64,000 bases of DNA from positions 45,334-109,333 of the forward strand of contig JBBINU010000005.1 in assembly GCA_037443725.1 (NCBI GenBank), written 5' to 3'. This stretch comes from Actinomycetota bacterium (GTDB lineage Bacteria; Actinomycetota; JBBINU01). The notes below the pieces were generated by a model, which was given only the letters and a program-made list of their open reading frames with translations, was not told the DNA's origin and did no database searches. The translations under genes were made by a program, and so were the position numbers. This document shows, piece by piece, positions 13,944 to 42,692 of this stretch (positions are counted from its first letter, which is position 1; the number at the start of each line of letters is the position of its first letter).

Positions 13944-13965
13944 CCGCCTGGCAGGCGAGCGGGGC

Positions 13966-14484
13966 CTACCTGCTCTCGACAAAGGCCCCCCAGACGGCCG
14001 GCCGGAGCTGGACTGCTTCCCCCTCCCTCTCGTCCCCCACCGCCACCCGGCCGCCGCCCTCGGCCAGGACCCCCGTCCCCGCCCCTCCGGTGGGTAAATC
14101 CGAGGCCAGCGGTGAAGGCGGGGGAGGAAGCACGGTCCGACTCGACGCCGGAACCATCCCCAGCGCAACTGCCCTTGAGAGCAGGGTCTCCGGGGATGAC
14201 TCCTTCGCCACAGCCTCGACCAGGCTGTGGTTCCGCACCTCCGCAAGGGCCAGCCTCTGCCTCAAAAGGGCTACCTCCCTGGAGCTGCCCGCCACCCCAG
14301 CCCCCAGTGCTTGAGACAAGAGGTACGCCCCGAAGACTAGGAGGAGGGGGAGCGCGAGATCCTTTGCCGCCTTCCTCCTGGCCGGCCTCCGGGAAGGGAC
14401 CTCGTGCATACCCCGCCCACCGGCGAGGACCTCGAACCTCCTCGCCGCCTTTGCCCCCTCGAGGACCCGGGCGGGTACTGCCAT
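13966..14484 (-). CDS. ftsL: Putative cell division protein FtsL-like (single TM plus coiled coil)
   Basis: Called mainly on position between rsmH and the PBP gene. Has a single TM (LALPLLLVFGAYLL) and a periplasmic coiled coil (LRQRLALAEVRNHSLVEAV). Weak sequence signal. Confidence 0.5.
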   Translation of the reverse strand: MAVPARVLEGAKAARRFEVLAGGRGMHEVPSRRPARRKAAKDLALPLLLVFGAYLLSQALGAGVAGSSREVALLRQRLALAEVRNHSLVEAVAKESSPETLLSRAVALGMVPASSRTVLPPPPSPLASDLPTGGAGTGVLAEGGGRVAVGDEREGEAVQLRPAVWGAFVESR

Positions 14485-20626: not shown

Positions 20627-21220
20627 CTACCTACCGTAGGTCCCCATGAGCTCCCCCTCACCCAGGACGTGCCCCCGCATGGCAGCCTCCACCTCAGCCC
20701 GGCTTGCTCCAGGGGAGAGGTCCAATTCCGCGTCCAGGGCGTAAAGGCGGAAGAAGTAGCGGTGGGGGCGACCCCTGGGAGGGCAGGGTCCCCCATATCC
20801 CACCTTTCCGAAGTCCGTCCTTCCCTGTCTCGCCCCGCCCAGGGCCTCCAGCACCGGCGTCTGGGGTACCCCCTCCGGCAGGGAGCTCACACCCACCGGC
20901 AGCCCGTAAAGGAGCCAGTGAAGAAAGGTGCGGCCGGGAGCGTCGGGGTCATCCATGATGAGCACGAAGGAGCGCGTCCCCGGGGGTGGGGAGCTCCAAG
21001 AAAGGGGAGGGGAGGTGTTCTCTCCATCGCAGGTGTACTTGCGCGGTATGGCTCCCCCAGGCGGGAAGGCGGCACTTCTAAGCTCCATCTCCATCCTTCC
21101 CTCCCTCGTCGCGCGGGGAGGCGACTCGCCGGCCTCCCGTACCCCGGGCTGGGCACAGCCTGCCAGGAGAACCAGCCCGAACGCCAGACTCGTCCCTCTC
21201 CGCAGCCCGACTCCGAGCAC
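20627..21220 (-). CDS. YbhB/YbcL (PEBP/RKIP) family lipoprotein
   Basis: Lipobox LLAGC. PEBP core YTCDGENTSPPLSW...DPDAP...HW...GP.PP...HRY. Confidence 0.7.
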   Translation of the reverse strand: MLGVGLRRGTSLAFGLVLLAGCAQPGVREAGESPPRATREGRMEMELRSAAFPPGGAIPRKYTCDGENTSPPLSWSSPPPGTRSFVLIMDDPDAPGRTFLHWLLYGLPVGVSSLPEGVPQTPVLEALGGARQGRTDFGKVGYGGPCPPRGRPHRYFFRLYALDAELDLSPGASRAEVEAAMRGHVLGEGELMGTYGR

Positions 21221-21292
21221 GGAGAGAAGGTTAGAACAGGGCCGGGATCACCGGAAAGAGGTGATCCCGGCCCTGCGTATCGGGGCCGCTGT

Positions 21293-22360
21293 TCAGCTCC
21301 GGCCCCCCTCACCCATGCTCATGACCTTTCTCGTCTCTGCCTTGGCCCTGTCGAGCTCGGCCGCGATCTCCTCGTCCCTGGCGGAAAGGGCCTCCAGGTC
21401 ACCCTCGGCGAACTGGATCACGCCCATCTCCTCGAAGGCCCGCCTCACCCGCTCCCCCCAGAGCCCGATGTCCTTCACGGCCGGGACTATTCGGGAGAAG
21501 AGCACCTTGCGGAACTCCCGCATCATGGTGGAGTTCAGCGTGTAGTCCACGGCCTCTTTGGCATCCACGCCCACGTGCTCCCAGACCTCCTCGGCGGTGA
21601 ACCGGTCCCGCATGAGGTAAGCTGCCTCCACCACGAACTCCTCCCTCTCAGCCCGCTCCGCCTCGCTCAGCTCTGGGTAGTAGTCACGCAGGGCGAGCCT
21701 CCCGAAGGCCACGTGCCTCGCCTCGTCCTCCATGACGTATGTGGCGATCTGCTTGCCCAGGGGTTCCTGGATCAGATCCCTCAGGATGGAGAAGGCGGCC
21801 AGGGCCAGGCCCTCCACCATGATCTGCATCCCCAGGCAGGTCATATCCCACTTGGGGGTCCTCACGACCTCGTCCAGCAGGACCTTGAGGTGGGGGTTCA
21901 CAGGGTAAGCCTTCCCAATCTTCCCCAGGTACTTGGTGTAGACCTCGACGTGCCTTGCCTCGTCCACCACCTGCGTGGCGGCATAGAGCTTGAGATCCAC
22001 ATCTGGAACGACCTGTACGATCTTGGCCGCCGCGAACAGGGCTCCCTGTTCCCCGTGGAGGAACTGGGAGTTGAGCCAGGCGGCCATGTGCCACCTGAGC
22101 TCGGCCTTCTCTTCAGCGGTGGCCCGCTCCCAGATGCTGGAGCCGTAGATGGGGACGAGGGGATCGGGCGTGTGCTCCGGGTTGGAGGGGTCCACGGGGA
22201 TGTCCCAGTCGATCCTGAACTCCGCATCCCACTGCTTCTGCTTCCCCTTGGCGTAGAGGTTCAGCAGGCGCTCCCGCCCCCTGTCGTACTCCCAGGTGAA
22301 GACCGTGTCGTACCCGGTGGGGATGACCAGCTTCTCCCCCACAGCCAGCTCATATCTCAT
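21293..22360 (-). CDS. Ferritin-like diiron-carboxylate protein (AurF-like oxygenase family)
   Basis: Repeated E..H motifs (VDEARHVEVY, MEDEARHVAFG) in a ferritin-like helical bundle. Start assigned to internal Met MRYELAVG. Confidence 0.55.
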   Translation of the reverse strand: MRYELAVGEKLVIPTGYDTVFTWEYDRGRERLLNLYAKGKQKQWDAEFRIDWDIPVDPSNPEHTPDPLVPIYGSSIWERATAEEKAELRWHMAAWLNSQFLHGEQGALFAAAKIVQVVPDVDLKLYAATQVVDEARHVEVYTKYLGKIGKAYPVNPHLKVLLDEVVRTPKWDMTCLGMQIMVEGLALAAFSILRDLIQEPLGKQIATYVMEDEARHVAFGRLALRDYYPELSEAERAEREEFVVEAAYLMRDRFTAEEVWEHVGVDAKEAVDYTLNSTMMREFRKVLFSRIVPAVKDIGLWGERVRRAFEEMGVIQFAEGDLEALSARDEEIAAELDRAKAETRKVMSMGEGGRS

Positions 22361-22431
22361 ACCGACCTCCCCTCCTATCCTGACCTCCCCTCTCTGGCCA
22401 GCTGCCCCATCCCGCAATCCCTTACCCGCCT

Positions 22432-23022
22432 CTAGCCACCTCCTTTCTCCAGGGCGGGGCCGAGGATCCCCGCCAGCTTCCAGGCAGTCACCTCCAGGGG
22501 TTCCTCGGACGGGGAGAGGGAGTAGGAGATGACCAGGCGTGCCGCGACCTCCAGGACACCCTCGGCCTCACCCCGGGGAAGCCCTGGCCAGGCGTCCAGG
22601 ATCACCGGGAGGAGGGCCCTGGTAGCGGCCTCCGTGATGGGGCCGAGGTCCAGGGTGAGGTGGGGAAGGACCTCTCCGGCCTCACCCCGGAGGAGGGGGT
22701 CAAGGATGGGGTGGCCCCGGAGGCTCCGGAGGGCCTGGAGGAGCCCGGCCTCCAGCAGCTCCCTTCCCTCCTTCCCCCTGACCGCCTGGAGAACGGAGGA
22801 GAGGATCTCCTCCTCGGCATGAATCACCAGAGCCTTCATCAGCCCCTCTCGCGAGCCGAAGTGGCGGTACACGGTCTGCCTTGACACGCCCGCCGCCCTG
22901 GCCACCTCCTCGAGGCTCGTTCCCCGGATACCTCGGGTGCGGAAGAGGAATAGGGCCCTTTCCAGAACCCTCCGGCGGGTCCTGCCTGCCCCACCTCCGC
23001 CCTCCGCGGGTACCCCTGTCAC
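22432..23022 (-). CDS. TetR/AcrR family transcriptional regulator
   Basis: HTH GIRGTSLEEVARAAGVSRQTVYRHFGSREGL. Confidence 0.8.
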   Translation of the reverse strand: MTGVPAEGGGGAGRTRRRVLERALFLFRTRGIRGTSLEEVARAAGVSRQTVYRHFGSREGLMKALVIHAEEEILSSVLQAVRGKEGRELLEAGLLQALRSLRGHPILDPLLRGEAGEVLPHLTLDLGPITEAATRALLPVILDAWPGLPRGEAEGVLEVAARLVISYSLSPSEEPLEVTAWKLAGILGPALEKGGG

Positions 23023-23113: not shown

Positions 23114-26100
23114 TCAGCAGGGGTGGGCCTCCAGGCCCACCAGGCGGAAGGTGCCCTCCCCCACCACCCGCCCCGCCACCACCAAGACCCTGCTCCCGAA
23201 GATCACGTGGGCGTACCTCTCCAGAGGCCTTCCGGAAAAGGCGACGTCCACTAGGCCGTCCCCGTCGTCCAGGGTGAGGAAGGCCACTCTCCTCCCGCTT
23301 CTGGTGGGAGGGGTCTGGATCATCACCTTCACCCCCCCGACCAGCACCCTCTGGCCGGGAGGAAGTCGGTCCAGGAGAGAAGAGGGGGTGAGATCCCCCA
23401 GAGCGTTCAGGCGGGGCCGGAGAAGGTGAAGGAGGTCATAGCTGATCTCCTCCCCCAGAAGGTTCAGCTCCTCCCGAACCCTCTCCTCCGGTGAATAGGG
23501 GCGGAGGCCGAGGGGGAGAGGCCCCGGGTGCCACGATGCCTCCCCCCTCTCCAGGACCTCAGCGAGGAAGACCAGGAGATCCCGTCTGGTCCTCCCACTA
23601 CCACCGCCCCCTTCGGTGAGCCCCTCCACTTCATCGAAGGCCCCGGCCCTCACCAGAGCCTCCAGGGTGGGCCTGGAGACAGAGGACCTGGGAACCCTTG
23701 AGAGGAAATCCTCAAGCCCTCTGAAGGAACCCCTCCCCCGCTCCTCCAAGATGGCAGCTATCTCCGCCTCGGAGATCCCCCGGAGGTGGAGAAAACCTAT
23801 ACGCAGTCCCACCGCACCCCCGGGCAGCCTCTCCGCCGTGTACTCCCTGGAGCTTGCGTTTATGTCCAGGGGCAGGACGGGTATCCCTGCCCTCCTCGCC
23901 TCGGCCAGGACCACCCGCCTCGGATACATCCCGGGCTCGTACGTGAGGACACCGGCGTAGAAGGCGGCCGGGTGGTGCGCCTTCATCCAGGCGGACTGGT
24001 AAGCGGGAAGGGCAAAGGCCACGGCATGGGCCTTGCAGAAGCCAAAGGCGGCAAAGGCCGAGAGGGACTCCCAGACTTCCTCCACCACTTTCTCCTCGTA
24101 CCCTTCCTCCTCGCCCGCCCGGAAGAACCACCGCCTGAGTTCCTCCCTCTCCTCCTCCCTCTCGAGCCTCCTCCTTATCCTGTCCGCCTCCGCCAGGGAG
24201 ACCCCGGCCACTGCGGAGATGAGCTTCATAGCCTGCTCCTGGAAGACGAGGACCCCGTAACTCTCGGCCAGGATGGACCGGAGGAGAGGGTGCGGGTACC
24301 GGACAGGCTCCTCACCCCACCGCCTCCTCAAGTAAGGCCGGACCATGTCAGCCCTGACAGGTCCGGGTCGGAAGAGGGAGATCTCCACGGCCAGCTCCTG
24401 GAGGTTCCCCGGCTTGAGCCGGGTCACCAGGTTCCTCTGCCCCGGGCTTTCCAGCTGGAAGCAGCCGACGGTCTTACCGGAGCGCAGGAGAGCGTAGGTG
24501 GCAGGGTCTCCATCCCCGAGACAGCCGAGATCCACCCTCTCCCCGCTCACCCTCTCCGCCTGGGAGACGGCGTGCCTGAGAGCCGAGAGCATCCTCACCC
24601 CAATCACGTCCAGCTTGAGGAAACCGAGGGCCTCGGTATCGTCCTTGTCGGCCTGGAGGGCAGGAATCCCTGCGGCGGTCAGGGTGAGGGGGGCGCGGAG
24701 GCAGGGATCTCCTCCACTAAGGGCGATGCCGCTGGGGTGCATGGCCACCTGCCTGGGAACTCCATCCAGGCGCTCCACCAGCCGGAAAAGGAGGTCCCAG
24801 GAAGAGGACCTGAGATTCGCCCGCCTCACCTCGGGCAGACTCATCACCACTTCTCCCAGAGCCCGGGGGGAGACATTCGGAAGGGACTCGGCCACCCTCG
24901 CCAGCTCCTCCCGGGGAAGCCCCAGGGCCTTGCCGGCCTCCCTAACCGCTCCCCTCACCCTGAAGGTCTCGAACACGGCCACAGCGGCCACTCTCCCGGG
25001 GTGGAGCTGGAGGATCCTCCTATACACCTCCTCCCTCCGGTCGGACTCCACGTCCAGATCGATATCGGGTGGGTCGGGACGAAGGGGGTTGAGAAAGCGC
25101 TCGAAGAGGAGACCGGAAGGGAGCGGATCCACCTCAGAGATACCCAAGAGGTAGCAGACGAGACTGCCCACCGCTGAACCGCGGCAGGCCACCCTGATCC
25201 CCATGGCCCTGGCCTCCCTGGCCACCTCGGCCACGGTGAGGAAATACCCAGCGTATCCCAGGGAGAGGATGACCTCGAGCTCCCTGGAGGCCCGCGCCTC
25301 GTACCTCCCCACTCCAGCAAGCCCCTTCCCCTCCAGACCCCTCCTCACCTCTGTCACCAGCCTTTCCTCCGCCCCCTCCACCTCCGGGTAGTACTTGGAC
25401 CCAAGGGGAGGCCCTCCCTCCAGCTCCTCCGCGAGCCCCGCAGCGTTACGGAGGAGGTCAGGCTCCTCCCGGAAGAGCTCCTCCATCTCCTCGAGGGGCT
25501 TGAGATACCCCTCGGCATTCCGCCTCTCCCCCAGCTTCACCGGACCCTGCTTTCCCATGGCCACCAGGAGGTCGTGAAGGGGAGCGTCGCCGGGGAGGAG
25601 GTAATGCACGGGGTTTGTGGCGACCGCCCGAACCCCAAGCCGACGGGCCAGATCCAGGAGGCCTCTCACCACCTTCCTCCCCTCCCCCTCCATGAGGTCC
25701 GAAACCTCCAAGAAGAAGCTCCCGCGTCCGAAGGCCTCCAGGTAGGCGCCGGCTGCCTCGAGGGCCCTTCTCTCCTCGTCCCTTCTTAGAAGAGCTCCGA
25801 CGTCGCTCCAGACCCCGGCGAGAAGGACCAACCCCTCGGTCTCCCTGGCCAGCTCCTCCCGGGAGATCCCCACCCTCTCCTCGGGCTCACTGGCCCGGAA
25901 GGCCTCCCCAGGGTAGACCGAGGGAACCCGTGCCCTCCCCGAAAGGTGGATCCGGGTGAGGAGCCGAGAGAGGGAGACGTATCCCCGCTCATCGCGGGCG
26001 AGGAGGAGGACCCGCCTCGCACCACCCCGGCAAGTTCTCGGCCTCGACCACCTCCTCCCCAGGGGGCCCTCCAGGCTCACCTCAGCACCAAAGATGGGCC

Positions 26101-26287
26101 TCACCCCATGCTCCACGCAGGCCCTGGCGAACCGCACCGCACCGAAGAGGGCATCGGTGTCGGTCAACGCCAGTGCGGTGTACCCCATCTCCCTGGCCCT
26201 GGCTGCCAGATCCTCGGGTCTTGCGGCCCCCTCGAACAGGCTCCAGACCGTATGCACATGAAGGTGAGTGAAGGGGAGACCCTTCAT
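23114..26287 (-). CDS. dnaE2: Error-prone DNA polymerase DnaE2 (ImuC)
   Basis: PHP domain LHVHTVWSLFEGAARPEDL, Pol III alpha core. ~1057 aa with no tau-binding tail, under a LexA box. Start at MKGLPFTHLHVH after RBS GGGAGGGGGAA. Confidence 0.85.
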   Translation of the reverse strand: MKGLPFTHLHVHTVWSLFEGAARPEDLAARAREMGYTALALTDTDALFGAVRFARACVEHGVRPIFGAEVSLEGPLGRRWSRPRTCRGGARRVLLLARDERGYVSLSRLLTRIHLSGRARVPSVYPGEAFRASEPEERVGISREELARETEGLVLLAGVWSDVGALLRRDEERRALEAAGAYLEAFGRGSFFLEVSDLMEGEGRKVVRGLLDLARRLGVRAVATNPVHYLLPGDAPLHDLLVAMGKQGPVKLGERRNAEGYLKPLEEMEELFREEPDLLRNAAGLAEELEGGPPLGSKYYPEVEGAEERLVTEVRRGLEGKGLAGVGRYEARASRELEVILSLGYAGYFLTVAEVAREARAMGIRVACRGSAVGSLVCYLLGISEVDPLPSGLLFERFLNPLRPDPPDIDLDVESDRREEVYRRILQLHPGRVAAVAVFETFRVRGAVREAGKALGLPREELARVAESLPNVSPRALGEVVMSLPEVRRANLRSSSWDLLFRLVERLDGVPRQVAMHPSGIALSGGDPCLRAPLTLTAAGIPALQADKDDTEALGFLKLDVIGVRMLSALRHAVSQAERVSGERVDLGCLGDGDPATYALLRSGKTVGCFQLESPGQRNLVTRLKPGNLQELAVEISLFRPGPVRADMVRPYLRRRWGEEPVRYPHPLLRSILAESYGVLVFQEQAMKLISAVAGVSLAEADRIRRRLEREEEREELRRWFFRAGEEEGYEEKVVEEVWESLSAFAAFGFCKAHAVAFALPAYQSAWMKAHHPAAFYAGVLTYEPGMYPRRVVLAEARRAGIPVLPLDINASSREYTAERLPGGAVGLRIGFLHLRGISEAEIAAILEERGRGSFRGLEDFLSRVPRSSVSRPTLEALVRAGAFDEVEGLTEGGGGSGRTRRDLLVFLAEVLERGEASWHPGPLPLGLRPYSPEERVREELNLLGEEISYDLLHLLRPRLNALGDLTPSSLLDRLPPGQRVLVGGVKVMIQTPPTRSGRRVAFLTLDDGDGLVDVAFSGRPLERYAHVIFGSRVLVVAGRVVGEGTFRLVGLEAHPC

Positions 26288-26388
26288 TTCCCCCTCCCGA
26301 GCCCTCCTCCCTGAGCCCTTCCGCACCTGGAGGCCACCTTAGGAGCCGTTCCCCGGTAGCCGGCAGGTCCGGGCGGAGGCCAGACGGC

Positions 26389-32594: not shown

Positions 32595-34406
32595 GTGGTC
32601 GGCCTCGTTCTCGGCGCCCGATACGAGGTCATAAGGAAGCTGGGTTCGGGGGGGATGGCCGAGGTCTTCCTCGCCAGGGACCGGGTCCTGGAGAGGGAGG
32701 TGGCCGTGAAGACCCTCCACCCCGGCCTGGCTCAGGACCCCCGGTTTCTGGAGCGTTTCAGGAGGGAAGCGCGGGCGGCCGCCTCCCTCGCGCATCCCCG
32801 GGTAGTCCAGGTCTTCGACTGGGGCGAGGAGTCGGGTCAGCCCTACATAGTCATGGAGTACGTCCCGGGCCCCTCCCTTAGACAGGTTCTCCACGCCCGG
32901 GGAAGACTCACGGTGGAGGAGACCCTGCATGTGGCGGTGGGAGTGCTGGACGCCCTGGAGGCGGCGCACCAGGCAGGCCTGGTTCACAGGGACATAAAGC
33001 CTGAGAACATCCTCCTCGCCAAGGGAGGCCCCAAGGTTGCTGACTTCGGCCTCGTAAGAGCCCTTGCAGAGGCGCCCCTCTCCGGTGCCCACCTCTTCGG
33101 CACCCCCCAGTACCTCTCACCTGAACAGGTAAGAGGGTTCCCGGCTGAGGCTCCAAGTGACCTCTACTCCCTCGGGATTGTCCTCTACGAATGCCTCACC
33201 GGGGAGGCCCCCTTCAAGGGCGAGAACCCCGTTGCGGTCGCCCTTGACCGGCTGAGCCGAACCATCCCTCCCCCCTCCGCTCTGGTCCCCGAGGTTCCTC
33301 CTGGGGTCGACAGCCTCGTCCTCGCCCTCACCAGGGCTCGGGCGGAAGACCGCCCCTCCACGAGCGAGGCCCTGGCTGTGGCGCGGGCCCTCCTCAGGGG
33401 TGAGGACCCGTCCCTCCAGGTCGCACCGGGGGAGGAGACCCGAGCCGCTCCGCACGCCGCCGCCACCGAGGCCATCCAGGTCGGGGCCGCGGAGAAGACC
33501 CTCGCTCTCCCCATGAATCGCGCACGGAAGGGAAGGTTCACCCTCGGCTTTCTTGCCCTGGCAGCCCTCACGGGACTCGGGGTTCTCCTGGGGAGGCAGG
33601 CAGCGGCCTGGCTTAAACCCGTCCCCGTCCCCGCCGTCCTCGGCCTCGAATACCCAAAGGCTGTGGCTAGCCTCAAGGAGCGCGGATTCCGGGCCGAGGT
33701 GGCAGGTCAGATCTACTCCTCCGAGTACTCCGAGGGGACCGTGGCTAGGCAGGAACCTCCCCCTCAGGCTCTCCTCCGCAGGGGAAGCACGGTAAGGCTC
33801 TGGACGAGCCTGGGGAAGCCGAAGAGGAAGGTCCCGAGCGTCCTCGGCCTGGACGTGGATGAAGCCAGGAGAACCCTGGAAGAGGCCGGCTTTCGCCTGG
33901 GAGAGATAACGCAGGTCTACGACGATCGCGTCCCCTCCGGCCGGGTCGTCGAACAGAACCCCAAGGCCGAGACCAACCTCGAGGTGGGAAGCAGCGTGGA
34001 CATCGCGGTGAGCAAGGGTCCCCGGCCGGTAGCCGTTCCTAGCGTGGTGGGGAAGACGCTGGATGAAGCCGAGGCTGCCCTGGCGGAGGCGGGCCTCAAG
34101 GCCCAGGTCACCCAGGAATACAGCGACACCGTCCCGGAGGGGCGCGTCATCTCACAGAGCCCCAAGGCCGGTACCTTCCTCCCGCCCGGCTCCACCGTCC
34201 GCCTCGTGGTGAGCAGGGGGCCGGCGCCCGTTCAGGTTCCTGACGTCGAGGGCAAGAAGCTTGAGGACGCCCTGAGGATCCTTTCGAGCGCAGGACTCAA
34301 GGCCAGCGTGAGCCGTCTCGGGCCTGGAAACCGGGTCGTATACCAGCTACCCCCACCTGGCACTACGGTGAGGCGGGGCAGCACCGTGCAACTGTGGGTG
34401 GGTTAG
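32595..34406 (+). CDS. pknB: Ser/Thr protein kinase with four C-terminal PASTA domains (PknB-like)
   Basis: GSGGMAEVF...VAVK, HRDIKPENIL, DFGL kinase motifs. TM segment then four PASTA repeats. Confidence 0.9.
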   Translation: MVGLVLGARYEVIRKLGSGGMAEVFLARDRVLEREVAVKTLHPGLAQDPRFLERFRREARAAASLAHPRVVQVFDWGEESGQPYIVMEYVPGPSLRQVLHARGRLTVEETLHVAVGVLDALEAAHQAGLVHRDIKPENILLAKGGPKVADFGLVRALAEAPLSGAHLFGTPQYLSPEQVRGFPAEAPSDLYSLGIVLYECLTGEAPFKGENPVAVALDRLSRTIPPPSALVPEVPPGVDSLVLALTRARAEDRPSTSEALAVARALLRGEDPSLQVAPGEETRAAPHAAATEAIQVGAAEKTLALPMNRARKGRFTLGFLALAALTGLGVLLGRQAAAWLKPVPVPAVLGLEYPKAVASLKERGFRAEVAGQIYSSEYSEGTVARQEPPPQALLRRGSTVRLWTSLGKPKRKVPSVLGLDVDEARRTLEEAGFRLGEITQVYDDRVPSGRVVEQNPKAETNLEVGSSVDIAVSKGPRPVAVPSVVGKTLDEAEAALAEAGLKAQVTQEYSDTVPEGRVISQSPKAGTFLPPGSTVRLVVSRGPAPVQVPDVEGKKLEDALRILSSAGLKASVSRLGPGNRVVYQLPPPGTTVRRGSTVQLWVG

Positions 34407-35373: not shown

Positions 35374-36695
35374 GCATGATGGACGAGTCCCGCCACCCAG
35401 GGGAAACGGGAGATGACCCCACCGCCGAGGACCCAGCCCTTTTAGGGGCGGCGCCCTCTCCCCTCCCCCACCACCCGCTCGCTCCCTTGAGGATCCCCGG
35501 GTTTCTCCTCTTCTGGGTGGGAAACCTCCTTTCCAACACGGGAACATGGGTCCAGAACGTGGTCCAGACTTTCCTCATCCAGCAGGCCACGGGGAGGGCG
35601 GGCATGGTGGGTATGCTCAACTTTGTCTACTTCGGGCCGACCCTCTTCCTCGCACCCCTGGGAGGCCTCCTCGCCGACCGGCTGGACCGCCGCCGCCTGC
35701 TCATCTTCACCCAGGTGGTGGCGGGAGCTCTGGCTCTCGCCCTCGCCGTCGCCTCCGTCAACGGAAAACCCAGTGTCCCGTTGCTCTTCGCTGTGGCCCT
35801 CGGAACGGGGTTCATGGTGGCCGCAGCCAACCCGGCAATGCAGGCGCTCATCCCCGCCCTGGTGGGTCTCTCCCTCCTTCCCCAGGCCCTCGCCCTGAAC
35901 GCCCTTACCTTCAATGCCTCCCGGGCGCTCGGCCCGGCCCTCGGCGGTTTCGTGGGAGAGCGATTCGGATACGCCGCGGCTTTCTTCCTGAACTCCGCCA
36001 GCTACTTCCTCTTCGCTCTCGCCCTCCTCCCGGTGAGAGTGCCATCGCCCCCGAGGGAGTCGGGCCCCCGGACCAGCATCAGAGAAGCCCTGGTGAATAG
36101 GGGAATCCTCCGCGATCTCTTCCTCGCCGCCGCCGCGGGATGGTCCATAGACCCCGTCATCACCCTCGCTCCGGCTTACGCCATAAAGGTCTTCCGGGCG
36201 GGCGCGAGCACCACCGGGGCCATCCTAGGCGCCTTCGGAGCCGGAACGCTTCTCGCCCCTCTCACAGTGAGCTGGGCCAGGGGGAAGCGGCTCGCACGGG
36301 TTCTCCCCCTCACCTTCTCCGTTCTCTTCCTCTCCCTCGCGGCCTTTGCGCTCCTCGCCGGAACCGGGTCCGCCCTCGCCCTCCTCCCCCTTGGTGGCCT
36401 CGCCTTCCTCACCACCAGCACTCTCATCACCACAGACCTTCAGAGGGCGACCACCGAGGACTTCAGAGGGAGGGTGATGAGCCTCTGGGCCGTGGCCTTC
36501 CTCGGAACCAGGCCCATTGCCTCGGCCGCCGACGGATTCCTCGCGGACCTGGTGGGGGTGAGGATCTCGACGGTTCTCATGGCAGGCCTCGCCCTGGTGG
36601 CCGCTGGAGTGGCGTGGCGCTCCCAGGAGGCCACCTTCGGCCGCCCGCGCCCCCGCGCACCAGACCGGTTCCTACCTGGGAGGGAAGAGTCCTGA
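35370..36695 (+). CDS. MFS transporter
   Basis: 12 TM helices. DRLDRRRLL MFS loop motif. ATGA overlap with nfo. Confidence 0.8.
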   Translation: MSMMDESRHPGETGDDPTAEDPALLGAAPSPLPHHPLAPLRIPGFLLFWVGNLLSNTGTWVQNVVQTFLIQQATGRAGMVGMLNFVYFGPTLFLAPLGGLLADRLDRRRLLIFTQVVAGALALALAVASVNGKPSVPLLFAVALGTGFMVAAANPAMQALIPALVGLSLLPQALALNALTFNASRALGPALGGFVGERFGYAAAFFLNSASYFLFALALLPVRVPSPPRESGPRTSIREALVNRGILRDLFLAAAAGWSIDPVITLAPAYAIKVFRAGASTTGAILGAFGAGTLLAPLTVSWARGKRLARVLPLTFSVLFLSLAAFALLAGTGSALALLPLGGLAFLTTSTLITTDLQRATTEDFRGRVMSLWAVAFLGTRPIASAADGFLADLVGVRISTVLMAGLALVAAGVAWRSQEATFGRPRPRAPDRFLPGREES

Positions 36696-36745
36696 CTTAT
36701 CCTTCTCCCTGGTAAGGGTGCGTCCGTCGCCGGCCTGCGGGAGGG

Positions 36746-37387
36746 GTGAGAGTGGAACTTCAAGAGGCGAGGGGGCGAATACCCCCGGGACAGTACGTCA
36801 GCCAGAAGTGGCCCGTTCTCCACGTGGGACCCGTCCCGCCTTTCGACCCGGGCCGCTGGGACCTCAAGGTCTTCGGGCTTGTGGAAGAGGAGCTGGTCCT
36901 GGGGTGGGAGGAGTTCTCGCGCCTGCCCAGGAAGAAGGTGCTGGCGGACTTTCACTGTGTCACGCGTTTCAGCGTTCTCAACAACCTCTGGGAAGGGGTG
37001 AGTAGCCGGACCTTGCTGGAACTGGCCCGTCCGAAGGCCACGGCCAGGCACGTCCTCGTCTGGGCCGAGTACGGGTACAGCGCCAACCTAACCCTCGAGG
37101 ACTTCCTCCGCGACGATGTTCTCTTCGCCCTCAGGAGAAACGGGGAGCCCCTTTCTCCGGAGCACGGCGGACCCGTGAGGCTCGTGGTTCCCCACCTCTA
37201 CGCCTGGAAGAGCGTGAAGTGGGTGAGGGGTGTCGAGGTCCTGGAGGAGGAAGTTCTCGGGTACTGGGAGGCGAGAGGCTACCACCGCCGCGGGGACCCC
37301 TGGGCTGAGGAGCGGTTCGCTCTAGCTCCCGTGCCGCCCATGAGGGCGAGGGTATGGAGGAGAGGGGGCGGACCCCTCCAGGGGTGA
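36746..37387 (+). CDS. Sulfite-oxidase-family molybdopterin-binding domain protein (YedY/MsrP-like)
   Basis: PPGQYVSQKWPVLHVGPVP, DFHCVTRFS (Mo-ligand Cys), LRRNGEPL, HLYAWKSVKWV. Confidence 0.7.
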   Translation: MRVELQEARGRIPPGQYVSQKWPVLHVGPVPPFDPGRWDLKVFGLVEEELVLGWEEFSRLPRKKVLADFHCVTRFSVLNNLWEGVSSRTLLELARPKATARHVLVWAEYGYSANLTLEDFLRDDVLFALRRNGEPLSPEHGGPVRLVVPHLYAWKSVKWVRGVEVLEEEVLGYWEARGYHRRGDPWAEERFALAPVPPMRARVWRRGGGPLQG

Positions 37388-37404
37388 GACGGGCCCGGCC
37401 AGCC

Positions 37405-37433
37405 GTTGACAGACCCAGCGCGATGAGCTAGAT
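37405..37433 (+). promoter_or_regulatory. Sigma70-like promoter TTGACA-17-TAGATT for the aroG leader
   Basis: TTGACA at 37405-37410 and TAGATT at 37428-37433, exactly 17 nt apart. Confidence 0.5.
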
Positions 37434-37441
37434 TGCCCGCG

Positions 37442-37522
37442 CATGAAGGTCTGGGTAGGGCAGCGATTTTGGTTCTATGCCCCTGGGCGCCCGGCGGGCG
37501 CTGGGGTTCGCTGCCTGGCCTA
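37442..37522 (+). CDS. Aromatic-rich leader peptide MKVWVGQRFWFYAPGRPAGAGVRCLA (leaderless)
   Basis: ATG lies 9 nt after the -10. The consecutive TTT TGG TTC TAT codons and an earlier TGG give 5 aromatic residues in 26. A terminator hairpin follows. Confidence 0.5.
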
Positions 37523-37539
37523 GGCGAAAGAGGACCCAG

Positions 37540-37566
37540 AGCCCCCGGGAGCCCCCGGGGGCTTTT
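37540..37566 (+). terminator. Attenuator terminator: GCCCCCGGG-agcc-CCCGGGGGC stem followed by TTTTA
   Basis: Perfect 9-bp GC stem plus T-tract, about 75 nt upstream of the DAHP synthase start. Confidence 0.55.
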
Positions 37567-37638
37567 ACATTCCGGGGGCGTCCGGGCGGCATCAGGGCGG
37601 GAAGAAGGGGTGCGCCCTTGGAAGGGAAAGGGGGAAAC

Positions 37639-38670
37639 ATGGTCGTGGTGATGCAGCCCGGAGCAGGAGATGAGGATATCGCCCGTGTCGTGAGAACCGT
37701 TGAGGAAGCTGGCGGTGAGGCCTTCGTCTCCCGCGGTAAGCAGAGGACCATCATAGGACTGGTGGGCGAGACCCAGACCTTTCTCTCCCTGCCTCTCCAG
37801 GCCCTTCCCGGGGTCGAGAGCGTGGTCCAGATAGGGCGGCCGTACAAGCTGGTGAGCGCCGAGTCGCACCCCGAGCCCAGCAGCATCCACGTCGGAGGGG
37901 TTGAGATCGGAAGACGGGGCTTCACCCTCATCCTCGGTCCCTGTGCCGTGGAGTCCGCCGAGCAGACCCTGGAGAGCGCCCGGATGGCCAAGGAGGCCGG
38001 AGCCCACATCCTGAGGGGTGGCGCATACAAGCCCCGCACCTCACCCTACACTTTCCAGGGTCTCGGACGGGACGGCCTTGAGATCCTCGCCGCAGCCAGG
38101 GAGGAGACGGGACTCCCCTTTGTCACTGAGGTTCTCGAGACAAGGGATGTAGAGCTCGTTGCAAGCTACGCCGACATGCTCCAGGTGGGGGCCAGGAACA
38201 TGCAGAACTTCAGCCTTCTCAAGGAAGTGGGGCGGTCCGGGAAGCCCGTCCTGCTGAAAAGGGGGTTCTCCAACACCATCGAGGAGTGGCTGCTGGCCGC
38301 CGAATACATAGCGCAGCAGGGGAACCTCCAGATCGTCCTCTGCGAGAGGGGGATCAGGACCTTCGAACCCTCCACCAGGAACACCCTGGACATTTCCGCG
38401 GTGCCGGTGGCCCAGTCCCTCTCTCATCTGCCTGTGGTGGTGGACCCTTCCCACGCTTCAGGGAAGAGGGCCTTGGTGCCGCCTCTGGCGCGGGCGGCGG
38501 TGGCCGCCGGAGCAGACGGGGTGATGATAGACATCCACCCCGAGCCAACCCGAGCCCTGGTGGATGGGGCGCAGGCCCTCAGCGGGGAGGAGGCCAAGAG
38601 GCTCGCCCAGGACCTCCAGCTCCTCGCCGCCCTCCTCGGCCGGAGCACGGAGACGAGGGTGAGGGCCTAA
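37639..38670 (+). CDS. aroG: 3-deoxy-7-phosphoheptulonate (DAHP) synthase, type I-beta with N-terminal regulatory domain
   Basis: Strong RBS GGAAGGGAAAGGGGGAAAC before ATG. KPRTSP, LPFVTEV, GARNMQNF, VVDPSH motifs. N-terminal ~60-aa ferredoxin-like domain. Confidence 0.85.
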   Translation: MVVVMQPGAGDEDIARVVRTVEEAGGEAFVSRGKQRTIIGLVGETQTFLSLPLQALPGVESVVQIGRPYKLVSAESHPEPSSIHVGGVEIGRRGFTLILGPCAVESAEQTLESARMAKEAGAHILRGGAYKPRTSPYTFQGLGRDGLEILAAAREETGLPFVTEVLETRDVELVASYADMLQVGARNMQNFSLLKEVGRSGKPVLLKRGFSNTIEEWLLAAEYIAQQGNLQIVLCERGIRTFEPSTRNTLDISAVPVAQSLSHLPVVVDPSHASGKRALVPPLARAAVAAGADGVMIDIHPEPTRALVDGAQALSGEEAKRLAQDLQLLAALLGRSTETRVRA

Positions 38671-40118
38671 AGGTCTTCCCGCCCAGGGGCGGCTCCCCCC
38701 CTAGGCGCCGGGGCCGCGCCCTCCGGGAAGGTCGGCGCCTCCCCCGCCCTCGGGGAACCGAGGAGGTCAAGGAGGACAAACTCGGTGTCCGCCCCCGCCG
38801 GCCGACACACCCACTTCAGCCTCGGGGGCGTCTCACTCATCTTGGCCGGAAGCCCTGGGAGAAGGAGCTCCCCGTAGGTGGGGTCCGTCACGCGCAGGAG
38901 GGCTCCCCGCTCGTACCAGTGGGAAAGGCGGGAGGTCTCCATGGGCGTGAGGACCTCTCCGCAGACGGTGACCCCCGGGCCCCGATAGGCGTTCCAGATA
39001 GCCACCAGCTCCTCCCTGGTCCTCTCCATGGTGAACTTCTCTATCTCCCTCACGATCTCTACGACGGCCGCGGGGTCCGTCCGGGAAGACACCGTGGGAA
39101 ACCGGTCCACCAGGTCCGGCCGGCCGATTATCTCGCACAGAGCCTTCCAGTTGGCATCTGTGTAGCCGGCGAGGAAGACCATCCCGTCCTTACACCTGAC
39201 GTAGCAGTACGGATGGGCGGCGGGCTCCACATTCCCCGGTCTCTCCATCACCTCCCCCGAGATGTGGTAGTAGGGGAGGGCATAGTTGTTCAGGCACATA
39301 AGGGCCTCGGCAGGGCTCAAGTCTATGGCCTGCCCCTCCCTGCTCTCCTCGCGCCAGAGGAGGGCAGCCATCACCGCCAGGGCGCCGAAGACCCCGCCCG
39401 CGTACCAGGCGAGCCAGTTTCCCATCCTCGTGGGCACCCTCGCTTCCTCGGGAAACTCGGTGTACTCTGCGGGGAGGCCCGTGGTGTGAACGAAGCCGCT
39501 GGCGGCCTGGGTCACGGTGTCGCTGCAACTCCATCCGGCCCGCCCAGCAACCTCCGCCAGAGGACCCTCCTGGCCGAAGGTGTGCAGCGAGAGGTAGATG
39601 AGCCCGGGGTTTAGCGCCTTGAGATCCTCGTAGCCGAGCCCCCGCGAGGCCATGCTCCCGGGAGGTTCCGTCTCCACCAGCACGTCCGCCCGGGCCGAGA
39701 GGGCGCGGAGGGTCGCCCGATCCCTTTCCTCCTCAAGGTCAAGAACGATATGCTCCTTGTTCCTCCCCTCCACCAGGTAAGCGAGCCCCGTCCCCCCCAC
39801 CTCCATCCCCTCGGGGCTGAAGAAACGGGCCGGGTCGCCCCCGGGAGGCTCGACCCTCACCACTCTCGCCCCGAACTCCGCCAGGAGACTGGAGCAGAAA
39901 AGGCCCGCGTAGCTCGAGCGGGAGACATCAAGCACGAGGATTCCCTCGAGGGCCTCGGGCTTCTCCCGCGCTGCCTGGGGAGCTGTGGCCTCCCGGGCCC
40001 AGTCCGACCAGCTCACCTCTGACCCTCCTCCAGAACCTCCGTGCCCTCCCGGAAGAAAAGCCCCCTCTTCCCATCCCAGTCCGGAGGGGGCGAAGCGAAG
40101 GGGAGTGCCGGATCCCAC
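38667..40118 (-). CDS. CoA-transferase family III (CaiB/BaiF-like)
   Basis: GILVLDVSRSSYAGLFCSSLLAEFGARVVRVEPPGGD signature. 5' end overlaps the next gene, so the true start is probably an internal GTG. Confidence 0.8.
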   Translation of the reverse strand: MGSGTPLRFAPSGLGWEEGAFLPGGHGGSGGGSEVSWSDWAREATAPQAAREKPEALEGILVLDVSRSSYAGLFCSSLLAEFGARVVRVEPPGGDPARFFSPEGMEVGGTGLAYLVEGRNKEHIVLDLEEERDRATLRALSARADVLVETEPPGSMASRGLGYEDLKALNPGLIYLSLHTFGQEGPLAEVAGRAGWSCSDTVTQAASGFVHTTGLPAEYTEFPEEARVPTRMGNWLAWYAGGVFGALAVMAALLWREESREGQAIDLSPAEALMCLNNYALPYYHISGEVMERPGNVEPAAHPYCYVRCKDGMVFLAGYTDANWKALCEIIGRPDLVDRFPTVSSRTDPAAVVEIVREIEKFTMERTREELVAIWNAYRGPGVTVCGEVLTPMETSRLSHWYERGALLRVTDPTYGELLLPGLPAKMSETPPRLKWVCRPAGADTEFVLLDLLGSPRAGEAPTFPEGAAPAPRGGAAPGREDL

Positions 40119-41335
40119 CTACCCACCACACCCTCCCGGTACAGCTCATCCACCTCCTGGGGGGAAAGGCCCAGAATCTTTCGCAGGACGTACTCGTTGT
40201 CGAAGCCGACGGGCCTTATCGACCAACGGATCCTGCCAGGGGTGGCCCCGAGCCTGAGAGCAAAGGGAAGGACGAGATCGCCCCAGAGGGGGTCCTCGAA
40301 GAACCAGACCGCCCTCCTGGATCTAAGGTGCTCGCTGGAGTGGAGGTCCCGGGCATCCATGACCTTGGATACGGAGAAGCCGTGCTGCCGCGCTGCGGCT
40401 TCCAGCTCGGCCAGGGTTCTCCGCCGGGCCCAGTCTTCAAGGCCCTCGTATATGAGGTGAGCCTTGGCTGTTCTCAGCCGGTAAGGTGCCAGGGGCAGGA
40501 GGTCCTCCCTGCCCATGGCACGGCAGAGGCCCTGGAACTCCTTCTCCTCCAGGGCACCCACGGCCACGAAGGCATCGGCCGCTCGCACCACGGCCCCCAC
40601 CACGGCAGCCAGGTCGCGATTGCCAGATCTCGCCCGGTTCCTGCCCGTGAGGCCAAGGAATGGCCAGGTCCAGTCCATGCAGCGGAGGAGGACCTCGGTC
40701 TGGGCAAGATCGATGAACTGACCCTTACCCGTCCGCCTCCTCCACACCAGGGCCACCAGAGCAACAAAGGCAGCATAGGTTCCCGCAAGGAAATCCCCTA
40801 TCCAGGCCGAGGACTTGACACCGACGGCTCCGGGAAACCCTGTGATCTCGGCGAGCCCCGTCACCCCCTGGGCGTAAGCGTCGTAACTCGGCCGGTCCGA
40901 AAGGGGACCCCAGTTCCCGAAGCCGCTCATGCTCACGTAGATGAGGTCGGGACGGACGGCCCGGAGCTGCCGGTAGCCGATGCCCCACGAGTCAAAGGTT
41001 CCCGGCTTGAAGTTTTCGAGCAGAATGTCGGAGCGGAGGGCGAGCCTCCGCACCAGGTTCACGCCCTCGGGCTTCCGGAGATCGATGGCGACGAAGTACT
41101 TGTTGGCGTTGGCGCAGAGAAGCCCGGAGGAGATGTTCCGTGGGAGCTTCCCCCGGGGGGCCACCGGCCTCACCAGCACGTCCCCGGCGCCCGGAAGCTC
41201 CACATGGATCACCTCCGCCCCGAGCTCGGCGAGGAGGGTCCCGGCCCACGGGCCGTAGATGACCCTGGTGATGTCGAGAACCCGAACGCCCCGCAGGGCT
41301 TCGGGCCGCACCGTCTCTCCGCCTGGCTCCGACAT
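40013..41335 (-). CDS. CoA-transferase family III (CaiB/BaiF-like), paralog
   Basis: VRVLDITRVIYGPWAGTLLAELGAEVIHVELPGAGD signature. Confidence 0.8.
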   Translation of the reverse strand: MSEPGGETVRPEALRGVRVLDITRVIYGPWAGTLLAELGAEVIHVELPGAGDVLVRPVAPRGKLPRNISSGLLCANANKYFVAIDLRKPEGVNLVRRLALRSDILLENFKPGTFDSWGIGYRQLRAVRPDLIYVSMSGFGNWGPLSDRPSYDAYAQGVTGLAEITGFPGAVGVKSSAWIGDFLAGTYAAFVALVALVWRRRTGKGQFIDLAQTEVLLRCMDWTWPFLGLTGRNRARSGNRDLAAVVGAVVRAADAFVAVGALEEKEFQGLCRAMGREDLLPLAPYRLRTAKAHLIYEGLEDWARRRTLAELEAAARQHGFSVSKVMDARDLHSSEHLRSRRAVWFFEDPLWGDLVLPFALRLGATPGRIRWSIRPVGFDNEYVLRKILGLSPQEVDELYREGVVGRWDPALPFASPPPDWDGKRGLFFREGTEVLEEGQR

Positions 41336-41388: not shown

Positions 41389-41802
41389 TCAACGGATGGA
41401 ACCACCCTCTTCCAGCACCTCCTGGGGAAGGAGAATAAGGGGAGCCATGCCGCACACCTGCGGGAACCGGTGGGGGTTGTAGGTGAGAAGGGGCAGGGAA
41501 CCAAGGAGGGCGGTGGCCGCCGTTGCCGCGTCCACCAGGTCCACGCGATACCCCTCCGCCCAGGCCGCCCGGAGGTACCGGGCAGCCAGCCTTGCCTCCT
41601 CCCCGCCGACGGGGAGAACACCGAGCCTGGCGAGGAGGGATGCCGCCTCCCCCCTCTCCCTCTCCTCCACCGCCCTCTCCACCTCGAGGAGGGCCAGAGC
41701 GCTCACTGCGGGCTCCAGCCCGGGGTGAAGGAGGATCTCCCTCGCCCTCCCCCTTCCCCGCACCCCCCAGAGGACGGAGATCCAGTCGAGAAGGACCTTC
41801 AT
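41389..41802 (-). CDS. vapC: PIN-domain protein (VapC-like toxin)
   Basis: KVLLD (N-terminal Asp), E in LEVE, DLVDAATAATA, TYNPHRF. No adjacent antitoxin ORF. Confidence 0.65.
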   Translation of the reverse strand: MKVLLDWISVLWGVRGRGRAREILLHPGLEPAVSALALLEVERAVEERERGEAASLLARLGVLPVGGEEARLAARYLRAAWAEGYRVDLVDAATAATALLGSLPLLTYNPHRFPQVCGMAPLILLPQEVLEEGGSIR

Positions 41803-41810
41803 TCAAAAAA

Positions 41811-41842
41811 CCCAAACCCCGGCACCTGTAGGGCCGGGCCCG
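41811..41842 (-). terminator. Hairpin CCCGGC-cctacaggt-GCCGGG followed by GTTTGGGTTTTTT, downstream of the hydrolase gene
   Basis: Read on the minus strand. The U-tract ends 3 nt before the vapC ATG. Confidence 0.5.
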
Positions 41843-41885
41843 CCCATACCCTCGCCAGAGTCAGCATCCTAGCTCGGAACGGCGG

Positions 41886-42692
41886 CTACCCCAGGCCCGA
41901 GAGGAACGCTCCCACAGCCTCAGCCCAGGCCTCGGGAGCCTCCAGGGGAGGCAGGTGCCCCGCCCCAGGAATGACCCGGAAAAGGGAGCCCGGGATATTC
42001 TCGGCCATGGCCCGCGCCTGCTCCACCGGAACGAGGGCGTCCTCCGCCCCGTGGATCACCAGGATGGGAACCCCCGCCCTGGCCAGCAGCTCTCTCGAAT
42101 CCGGCCTCGCCGCCATCGCCAAGCTGTCAGCGGCGGCCACCTCCCGGCGGGTCCCTCGGATCATCTCCTCCACCAGCTCCGCCACCTCCCGGGGGGCCTC
42201 GGGGCCGAGCAACCGCGGGGTCATCTCCCTGGCCAGCCCCTCCATCCCCTCCGCCATGACCCTTTCCGCCACTGCCCTTCTGGCCTCTACCCCCTCGGGA
42301 GGGTCAGCCGTGGCGCGGGTGCTCGCGAGAATGAGAGAGCGCACCCTCTCCGGGTAGCTCCTGAGAAAGGCCATGGCCACATACCCGCCCATGGAGAGCC
42401 CGCATAGATCAATCCCGTCGAGGCCGAGGAAGTCCATGAGGTCGGCGAGGTCGCGGGCGAAGAGCTCCATGCTGAAAGAGGGCGGGGAGACACCCGGAGG
42501 AACGCTGCTCTCGCCATGCCCCCTGAGGTCGACGGCGATGACCCTCCTCCCCCTTCCCAGGAGAGAAAGCTGCTTCGCCCACATTCTCCGGTTCAGCGGA
42601 AACCCGTGGACGAGGAGGAGGGGGAACCCGGAACCCGCCTCCTCGTAGGCGAGGAGGGCCCCATCGCGGCTGCGAACTGTGCCTCTGGCCAC
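41886..42692 (-). CDS. Alpha/beta-fold hydrolase
   Basis: LLLVHGFPLNRRMW, GLSMGGYVA nucleophile elbow. Confidence 0.75.
   Translation of the reverse strand: MARGTVRSRDGALLAYEEAGSGFPLLLVHGFPLNRRMWAKQLSLLGRGRRVIAVDLRGHGESSVPPGVSPPSFSMELFARDLADLMDFLGLDGIDLCGLSMGGYVAMAFLRSYPERVRSLILASTRATADPPEGVEARRAVAERVMAEGMEGLAREMTPRLLGPEAPREVAELVEEMIRGTRREVAAADSLAMAARPDSRELLARAGVPILVIHGAEDALVPVEQARAMAENIPGSLFRVIPGAGHLPPLEAPEAWAEAVGAFLSGLG

Follow-up and report, generated by a model that had tools for sequence, protein, structure and literature searches.

The leader region of aroG

The window, i.e., the whole stretch of 64,000 nucleotides (nt) analysed here, belongs to contig JBBINU010000005.1 of an Actinomycetota bacterium and contains aroG, a gene for a 3-deoxy-D-arabino-heptulosonate 7-phosphate synthase (DAHPS). 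The gene is preceded by a promoter, a short open reading frame (ORF) with a run of aromatic codons and a hairpin that resembles an intrinsic terminator. The ensemble has the appearance of a transcription attenuator. Its components are the following:

37406-37411, + strand: -35 hexamer TTGACA; kept in the closest relative, locus L081, and in L014, L024, L030 and L083
37429-37434, + strand: -10 hexamer TAGATT (TAnnnT type), separated from the -35 hexamer by a 17-nt spacer and lying 8 nt before the ATG
37443-37523, + strand: presumably leaderless leader-peptide ORF MKVWVGQRFWFYAPGRPAGAGVRCLA, 26 codons plus stop, as obtained by translation; its counterpart in L081 is in the same register
37467-37478, + strand: putative regulatory codons F9-W10-F11-Y12 (TTT TGG TTC TAT); aromatic runs are kept in about 40 related leaders
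37449-37525, + strand: 5' hairpin (segments 1:2) of the minimum-energy folds, in which 37449-37466 and 37479-37492 pair with 37496-37525
37490-37509 with 37530-37549, + strand: predicted antiterminator (segments 2:3), which covers the 5' arm of the terminator and has the stop codon in its apical stem
37538-37566, + strand: intrinsic-terminator-like hairpin (segments 3:4) with 5' arm 37538-37549, loop 37550-37553 and 3' arm 37554-37565
37570-37578, + strand: fifth CCGG-containing segment, TTCCGGGGG, recognised by its recurrence in relatives
37628-37634, + strand: Shine-Dalgarno (SD)-like AAGGGGG, 4 nt before the ATG of aroG; the GGGGG run is kept in L081
37639-38670, + strand: aroG, type I-beta DAHPS with an N-terminal ferredoxin-like domain, 343 amino acids (aa), assigned by Pfam and structure alignment

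The promoter TTGACA-17-TAGATT had been proposed in the first-pass annotation of this DNA and was indeed found, at 37406-37434. Scanning 36500-38500 yielded it as the sole sigma-70-like match, the mean for dinucleotide shuffles being 0.0. The ATG had been placed 9 nt past the -10 box; 8 nt intervene, and the A of the ATG (37443) is the ninth base. The leader ORF contains the five aromatic residues that had been claimed, with the TTT-TGG-TTC-TAT run at 37467-37478. That these are rare codons holds true for TTT and TAT, which make up 22% of the Phe and 21% of the Tyr codons in the 42 ORFs of the window, but not for TTC, the preferred Phe codon, nor for TGG, to which Trp has no alternative. When a -10 box, 5-10 nt, an ATG or GTG, an ORF of 8-40 aa and a T-tailed hairpin within 80 nt were searched for in combination, the two strands of the window together yielded just one match: the present locus.

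The terminator-like hairpin has a calculated energy of -25.6 kcal/mol (z = -4.4), and none of 200 shuffled sequences was as stable. Its stem AGCCCCCGG/CCGGGGGCT is the 9-bp GC hairpin of the first-pass annotation; it begins 16 nt past the stop codon, however, not 18. The sequence UUUU occupies 37563-37566, whereby three of these U pair at the base of the stem, and the tail after the hairpin reads UUUUACAUU. A smaller inner hairpin, GCGCCC-ggc-GGGCGC, had also been described correctly; it is located at 37487-37501 and is taken in by the 5' hairpin.

The ATG of aroG at 37639 is preceded by AAGGGGG, as expected from the claim that the gene is SD-led. From a second ATG, at 37477 within the region of the leader ORF, a mechanical ORF of 397 aa (37477-38670) can be read in the frame of aroG. 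Should a gene caller choose this ATG, the terminator would become part of the coding sequence and the leader would be concealed. The homologues begin with MVVVM and thereby identify 37639 as the true start.

Conservation among homologous loci

For comparison, 80 loci of species-representative genomes were found by their DAHPS protein at 58-68% identity. Nearly all of them are from Actinomycetota: Nitriliruptorales, Nocardioides, Mycobacteriales, Streptosporangiaceae, Frankiales, Streptomyces and others. A short aromatic ORF, defined by at least three W/F/Y in five residues at most 250 nt upstream of the gene, was detected in 34 of 78 loci. The reverse complements yielded none in 78, and dinucleotide shuffles a mean of 1.1 with a maximum of 2. 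Typical leader peptides are MSYEFWYAPSPGRPGAGAHARV, MQRYFWFYDSSGDPEADGL, MRQQFWFWYGYRPGNRTVARQTLR and, from Nocardioides, MAHTYFFGHLPGAPVQARP. A weaker F-x-Y group, M-R-R-x-F-x-Y-A-D-R-S-G-x-P-G-S-G-R, is clearly related and adds to the 34.

The start of the short ORF is preceded by a TAnnnT hexamer at a distance of 6-12 nt (mode 7) in 35 of 40 leaders; when the sequences of the remaining five were read by eye, an in-frame upstream start was seen at the same spacing. A start codon only 6-12 nt past the -10 box implies that the leader ORFs are leaderless.

A hairpin with the core CCCCGG...CCGGGG starts 14-27 nt past the stop codon in 40 of 42 leaders. RNAalifold, applied to 38 distinct hairpins, proposed 10 pairs; five of them, which flank the six-pair core, show compensatory double changes. 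In the core itself, five of the six positions are invariant and the sixth keeps pairing, the swap seen there in 2 of the 38 sequences being an artefact of the alignment register. The 10 nt that follow the stem consist of 50% T, versus 14% for the remaining leader; at least four T in 10 nt are present in 36 of 40 tails.

Aromatic ORF and hairpin either co-occur or are both missing. The one exception, L041, proved to have a weak aromatic ORF. The full signature occurs 35 times before DAHPS genes; the flanking sequence, 1.06 Mb in all, has it once elsewhere. Just 20-27 nt separate the end of the hairpin from the start of the gene in six loci (L045, L058, L068, L070, L073 and L082). Such a gap offers no space for a second promoter, and the gene can therefore be transcribed only through the hairpin.

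Promoter, ORF and hairpin could, of course, form an independent small unit, coding for a small protein or a small RNA, while aroG is driven by a promoter of its own. A hairpin of such stability would suit a unit of this kind, and the 73 nt between hairpin and aroG in the window could in principle hold a promoter. The scan, however, detected no promoter-like site in 37567-37638, and the gap shrinks to the mentioned 20-27 nt in relatives. Nor would such a unit be expected to keep company with DAHPS genes at a ratio of 35 to 1, or to conserve nothing but the aromatic run and CCGG while its other residues vary freely. We consider this explanation very improbable.

Overall, the comparison lends support to the attenuator proposed by the first-pass annotation: ORF, spacing, codon bias (see below) and a covarying, T-tailed hairpin are conserved and occur together.

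The distribution within the Nitriliruptoraceae is patchy. Some of their DAHPS loci have leader and hairpin, others have neither; the groups contrasted are L001, L004-L006, L008-L010, L013, L015 and L017 versus L003, L007, L016, L019, L021, L026, L029, L034 and L051. This suggests paralogues or repeated loss.

Translation of the leader ORF

Across the leaders, order and identity of F, W and Y vary and synonymous codons are swapped; the nucleotide sequence of the stretch is not conserved. The choice of codons is peculiar. TAT accounts for 32 of 52 Tyr codons in the leaders (62%) versus 1 of 198 in the adjacent genes (0.5%; Fisher p = 1e-25), and TTT for 31 of 83 Phe codons versus 12 of 283 (p = 1e-13). 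These counts are not phylogenetically independent, yet the effect is very large. Since a bias of this kind makes sense only in a translated sequence, the ORF is most likely translated.

Downstream of the aromatic run, CCGG is read as P-G, x-R-x or S-G, depending on the leader, and the rest of the peptide varies freely. A Pro-Gly tail as a peptide arrest motif was considered and ruled out, because conservation resides in the nucleotide string CCGG, whose frame differs between leaders.

These findings also bear on the idea that the leader is an RNA that binds a ligand, a tRNA or a protein, be it a riboswitch, a T-box or a TRAP-like target, and that the ORF is incidental. The full leader is highly structured (-109 kcal/mol, z = -2.6), and a binding site might be seen in the invariant core of the terminator. 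Upstream of the hairpin, however, conservation concerns the identity of in-frame codons and neither RNA sequence nor structure; the spacing between -10 box and start codon is constant, and the preference for TAT and TTT would be pointless if the ORF were incidental. Searches with covariance models point in the same direction. No Rfam family (tRNA, rRNA, riboswitch or small RNA) reached its gathering threshold anywhere in the 64-kb window; this includes the amino-acid leaders Trp_leader, Phe_leader, His_leader, Leu_leader and Thr_leader. The best match of a leader family was His_leader with 18-20 bits against a threshold of 49, on the terminator hairpin only, and the best matches, with E-values of 0.2-1, are to be regarded as noise. 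The T-box model gave no match in 37300-37750 at E-values up to 10. A binding RNA with an incidental ORF is thus hardly conceivable as the nature of this leader.

The closest relatives

Among 5.8 billion proteins only one, P0001, is more than 70% identical to the product of aroG. It shares 93% identity and is encoded on a JGI metagenome contig, the locus L081. With a single relative of this kind, deep covariation within the subfamily of the window is impossible to obtain. A column-by-column MAFFT comparison of window and L081 was uninformative, many pairs looking broken, because indels shift the register of the helices; folded separately, the two leaders have matching topologies.

The promoter of L081 is TTGACA, 17 nt, TAGTCT. 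Its leader ORF encodes MALGSWRRFRFYAPGRPVGALVSRRT, again 26 codons before the stop; although the ATG is shifted and 2 nt are inserted, the frame through F-x-F-Y-A-P-G-R-P is intact. The 5' hairpin shows one compensatory change between the two, CAGC:GCUG in the window versus CGGC:GCCG in L081. The terminator of the latter reads GGCCCCCGGG-acg-CCCGGGGGCC-UUUU. The 70 nt between terminator and SD have diverged.

The same layout is seen in further metagenomic relatives: in L082 with the peptide MRQQFWFWFGYRSGSRTVACQVLH, and in L083 with TTGACA/TACCAT and the peptide MRDYFWFYGTSGSPEADAR.

Folding of the leader and proposed mechanism

The minimum-energy folds of the leader reveal three states. Without a ribosome, the transcript 37443-37567 folds into 5' hairpin plus terminator, with -77.0 kcal/mol. 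In this fold the unpaired internal loop of the 5' hairpin coincides precisely with the four aromatic codons (12 nt), and the hairpin is predicted to sequester the antiterminator strand. With a ribosome at the stop codon, the terminator forms. If the ribosome is stalled with F9 in its A site, a long hairpin of 37480-37509 with 37530-37561 is obtained (-56.8 kcal/mol); it engages both arms of the terminator and has the stop codon near its apex. The leader of L081 adopts the same three states.

Most likely, with a probability of roughly 80% as judged from sequence and comparison, the monocistronic DAHPS gene is controlled by a ribosome-mediated leader-peptide transcription attenuator. As to the start of transcription, termination itself, the kinetic antiterminator and the amino acids sensed, we infer the following course of events. 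Transcription would start with the ATG at 37443 or no more than about 2 nt away from it, and the ORF would be translated as a leaderless message. As long as charged Phe-, Trp- and Tyr-tRNA are plentiful, the ribosome should pass F9-W10-F11-Y12, reach the stop codon, and unwind and occupy the 5' strand of the antiterminator. The segment 37538-37549 could then pair with 37554-37565, and RNA polymerase would terminate at the U-tract near 37566. When aromatic aminoacyl-tRNA becomes scarce, the ribosome would stall on 37467-37478 and cover segment 1. The CCGG-rich stretch 37490-37509 would then be free to capture 37530-37549 before the 3' arm exists. With the antiterminator formed, the terminator would be blocked and aroG transcribed. 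In the absence of any translation, the 5' hairpin (37449-37525) would tie up segment 2, and the untranslated leader should therefore terminate by default.

Several observations weigh against this attenuator. The U-tract of the window is short, UUUU being followed by ACAUU, and the scanner, with its strict rule for terminators, did not call the hairpin on the + strand. The element is missing from about half of the homologous DAHPS loci, among them all those of Streptomyces, and the family counts are phylogenetically non-independent. W10 is an Arg in L081, and the sensing of Trp may therefore be specific to this genome or marginal. For the aroR-aroF attenuator of Corynebacterium glutamicum (see below), a passage in PMC11802643 describes an effect of Phe limitation only, not of Tyr, which calls for caution as to the sensing of all three aromatic amino acids. 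The complementarity between ORF and 5' arm in the window itself reaches just z = -1.28, with 10% of the shuffles equalling it, and taken by itself it lacks significance. Finally, the alternative folds that the first-pass annotation had envisaged are only in part borne out: the antiterminator is the minimum-energy fold when the ribosome stalls at F9, but the terminator wins with stalls at W10, F11 and Y12. In 35-36 of 40 members of the family the terminator is the minimum-energy fold at every stall position.

Since the terminator prevails in the equilibrium folds, antitermination has to be a kinetic trap that is set before the 3' arm is made. The antitermination in the trp leader of Escherichia coli is kinetic as well. 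Equilibrium folds with ribosome masks were accordingly dropped as a test of the switch. The number of paired bases in the 5' arm was also abandoned as a statistic: it amounts to 7.2 versus 6.5 in shuffles, a small excess that is explained by the ease with which GC-rich sequences pair.

Folds of transcripts that are cut before the 3' arm and a comparison of duplexes with shuffles took their place. With a stall at Y12, 11 of the 12 bases of the 5' arm in the window pair with 37490-37505 (-38.2 kcal/mol, z = -1.9); in the equivalent fold of L081, all 13 of 13 arm bases are paired (z = -4.25). In the family as a whole, the stretch of the ORF downstream of the aromatic run was tested for duplex formation with the 5' arm against shuffles: z averages -1.7, and 19 of 39 leaders rank within the best 5% of their shuffles. 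Counted from the first base of the last aromatic codon, the duplex usually begins after 9-15 nt, at a position that would coincide with the leading edge expected for a stalled ribosome.

A different view accepts that translation of the ORF matters, yet attributes the control to Rho-dependent termination, to mRNA stability or to the access to the ribosome-binding site of aroG. The hairpin arms might, for instance, pair with TTCCGGGGG further downstream. This fifth segment is not peculiar to the window. CCGG, by eye (T)TCCGGG, recurs 6-10 nt past the hairpin in 17 of 40 leaders, (T)TCCGGG being found at the same position in L014, L021, L026, L029, L035, L047, L072, L073 and others; within 30 nt after the hairpin, CCGG is present in 70% of the leaders versus 26% of the shuffles. 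In the fold of the full leader, the segment pairs with the 3' arm of the terminator. Like the window, moreover, many relatives have a weak U-tract, most stall models still favour the terminator as minimum-energy fold, and some leader peptides of actinobacteria have been reported to lack clear Rho-independent terminators (PMC8079986). On the other hand, a GC-rich stem followed by T's is the very signature of an intrinsic terminator, and the T content of the tails (0.50 versus 0.14, with at least four T per 10 nt in 36 of 40) conforms to it. The fifth segment is not retained in the closest relative, L081, and the region between hairpin and SD is poorly conserved. We regard control by other than intrinsic termination as unlikely, and prefer the attenuator as described.

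The invariance of the CCGG core may be understood from its double use: each segment has to pair with two partners, and a change would require several simultaneous substitutions. An extended reading is more tentative, and we would rate its chances slightly below even: the leaders may form a family that senses all three aromatic amino acids at the entry of the shikimate pathway, with a frozen CCGG core and with selection for TAT and TTT tuning the sensitivity. Four or five copies of CCGG, which is self-complementary, would make up the switch. Its proposed range covers the Nitriliruptorales, Nocardioides and other Propionibacteriales, Mycobacteriales, Streptosporangiales, Frankiales and the deep lineage of the window.

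If the attenuator works as proposed, carbon entry into the shikimate pathway would be under dual control in this lineage: by tRNA charging and, probably, by allosteric feedback via the ferredoxin-like domain. The odd GC-rich hairpin that is conserved before many actinobacterial DAHPS genes would be explained, and a rule would be at hand by which to annotate a regulatory element that at present escapes both gene callers and Rfam. The leaders would also illustrate, cleanly and in nature, how rare codons are selected in a leader peptide, and might be of use in engineering actinobacteria for the production of aromatic compounds. The mechanism is classical and opens no new mechanistic question.

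Comparison with known systems

The classical attenuators of E. coli, trpL and pheL (pheA), share with the leader of the window a layout of four segments, in which 1:2 forms a hairpin, 2:3 the antiterminator (a predicted one in the window) and 3:4 the terminator, and have the regulatory codons in or next to segment 1. In both cases the terminator is more stable than the antiterminator, and the choice is kinetic or, in the window, would have to be so. The differences are nevertheless evident. The ORF of the window is leaderless and mixes Phe, Trp and Tyr codons, whereas those of E. coli are SD-led and devoted to one amino acid. It would control the entry enzyme of the pathway instead of a terminal branch, and no Rfam leader family matches it.

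The aroR-aroF system of C. glutamicum may be considered analogous, as it likewise has a short leader peptide with aromatic codons before a DAHPS gene of an actinobacterium. AroF of C. glutamicum is a type I-alpha enzyme; that of the window, in contrast, is of type I-beta and carries a ferredoxin-like domain. By description, on which this comparison is based, the leader of the window differs further in having Trp codons also and in belonging to the family with the CCCCGG/CCGGGG core. The aroR leader, with its Phe-Tyr-Phe, lies upstream of aroF and attenuates it (Mentz 2013, PMC4046766). Stalling under Phe limitation raises read-through, according to a passage on Neshat 2014 in PMC11802643. In production strains of C. 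glutamicum the aroR leader is routinely deleted (PMC7356990).

An upstream ORF with Phe codons plus an intrinsic terminator, uORFC-13-1, has been predicted before aroF (3-deoxy-7-phosphoheptulonate synthase) of Acholeplasma (Brewer et al. 2021, PMC8632094). It has a ribosome-binding site and a U-run that encodes Phe, and stems from the AT-rich Mollicutes, while leaders of the present type are GC-rich, leaderless and actinobacterial. A sequence relationship between the two is not evident.

In Streptomyces lividans, all eight leader peptides (trpL1, leuL, ilvL and others) are leaderless, start from a TAnnnT -10 box and are followed by hairpins with or without U-runs (PMC8079986). The leader of the window resembles them in being leaderless and in its TAnnnT promoter. 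None of the eight, however, precedes a DAHPS gene, and the Streptomyces DAHPS homologues retrieved here have no leader.

With attenuation of DAHPS genes established in C. glutamicum and predicted in Acholeplasma, the element appears to work like a known kind. In the searchable literature we found no account of a family of leaders that are leaderless, have mixed W/F/Y codons and a CCCCGG core, and belong to a type I-beta DAHPS; a DAHPS leader is not mentioned in Seliverstov 2005, Naville and Gautheret 2010, Korolev 2016 or the S. lividans reannotation. The element is real and unannotated. At most, it represents a newly recognised, lineage-wide family of attenuators of a known kind.

The enzyme and the neighbourhood

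The product of aroG matches DAHP_snth_FXD (PF18152, E = 1.3e-20) and DAHP_synth_1 (PF00793, E = 8e-81), and its residues 1-334 align with the DAHPS of Thermotoga maritima (1RZM/3PG9, E = 3e-117). The first-pass annotation had assumed a second, allosteric layer of control. The required ferredoxin-like domain at the N-terminus is there; the allosteric layer itself is plausible, since the enzyme aligns end to end with the T. maritima DAHPS that has the same domain.

The gene is monocistronic, the next one being convergent on the - strand:

38667-40118, - strand: CoA-transferase family III gene, converging on aroG
40013-41335, - strand: second, adjacent CoA-transferase family III gene

The first of them overlaps the stop codon of aroG by 4 nt, which leaves aroG no room for a terminator of its own.

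Two ORFs of the window are without Pfam match, 20669-22435 (+ strand, 588 aa) and 41470-42357 (+ strand, 295 aa). The reality of the former is uncertain, since a long antisense ORF, 21293-22417, overlaps it. Other genes of the window code for a penicillin-binding protein transpeptidase, a DnaE2-like Pol III alpha of 1070 aa, a PknB-like kinase with four PASTA domains, and GlnE; these four occupy 12285-14246, 23114-26326, 32595-34406 and 59098-62004. Taken with the relatives of the DAHPS, they suggest that the DNA comes from a poorly sampled lineage of actinobacteria. The neighbourhood presumably resembles the actinobacterial dcw-pknL-aroG-glnE region, judged by the gene order of Mycobacterium tuberculosis.

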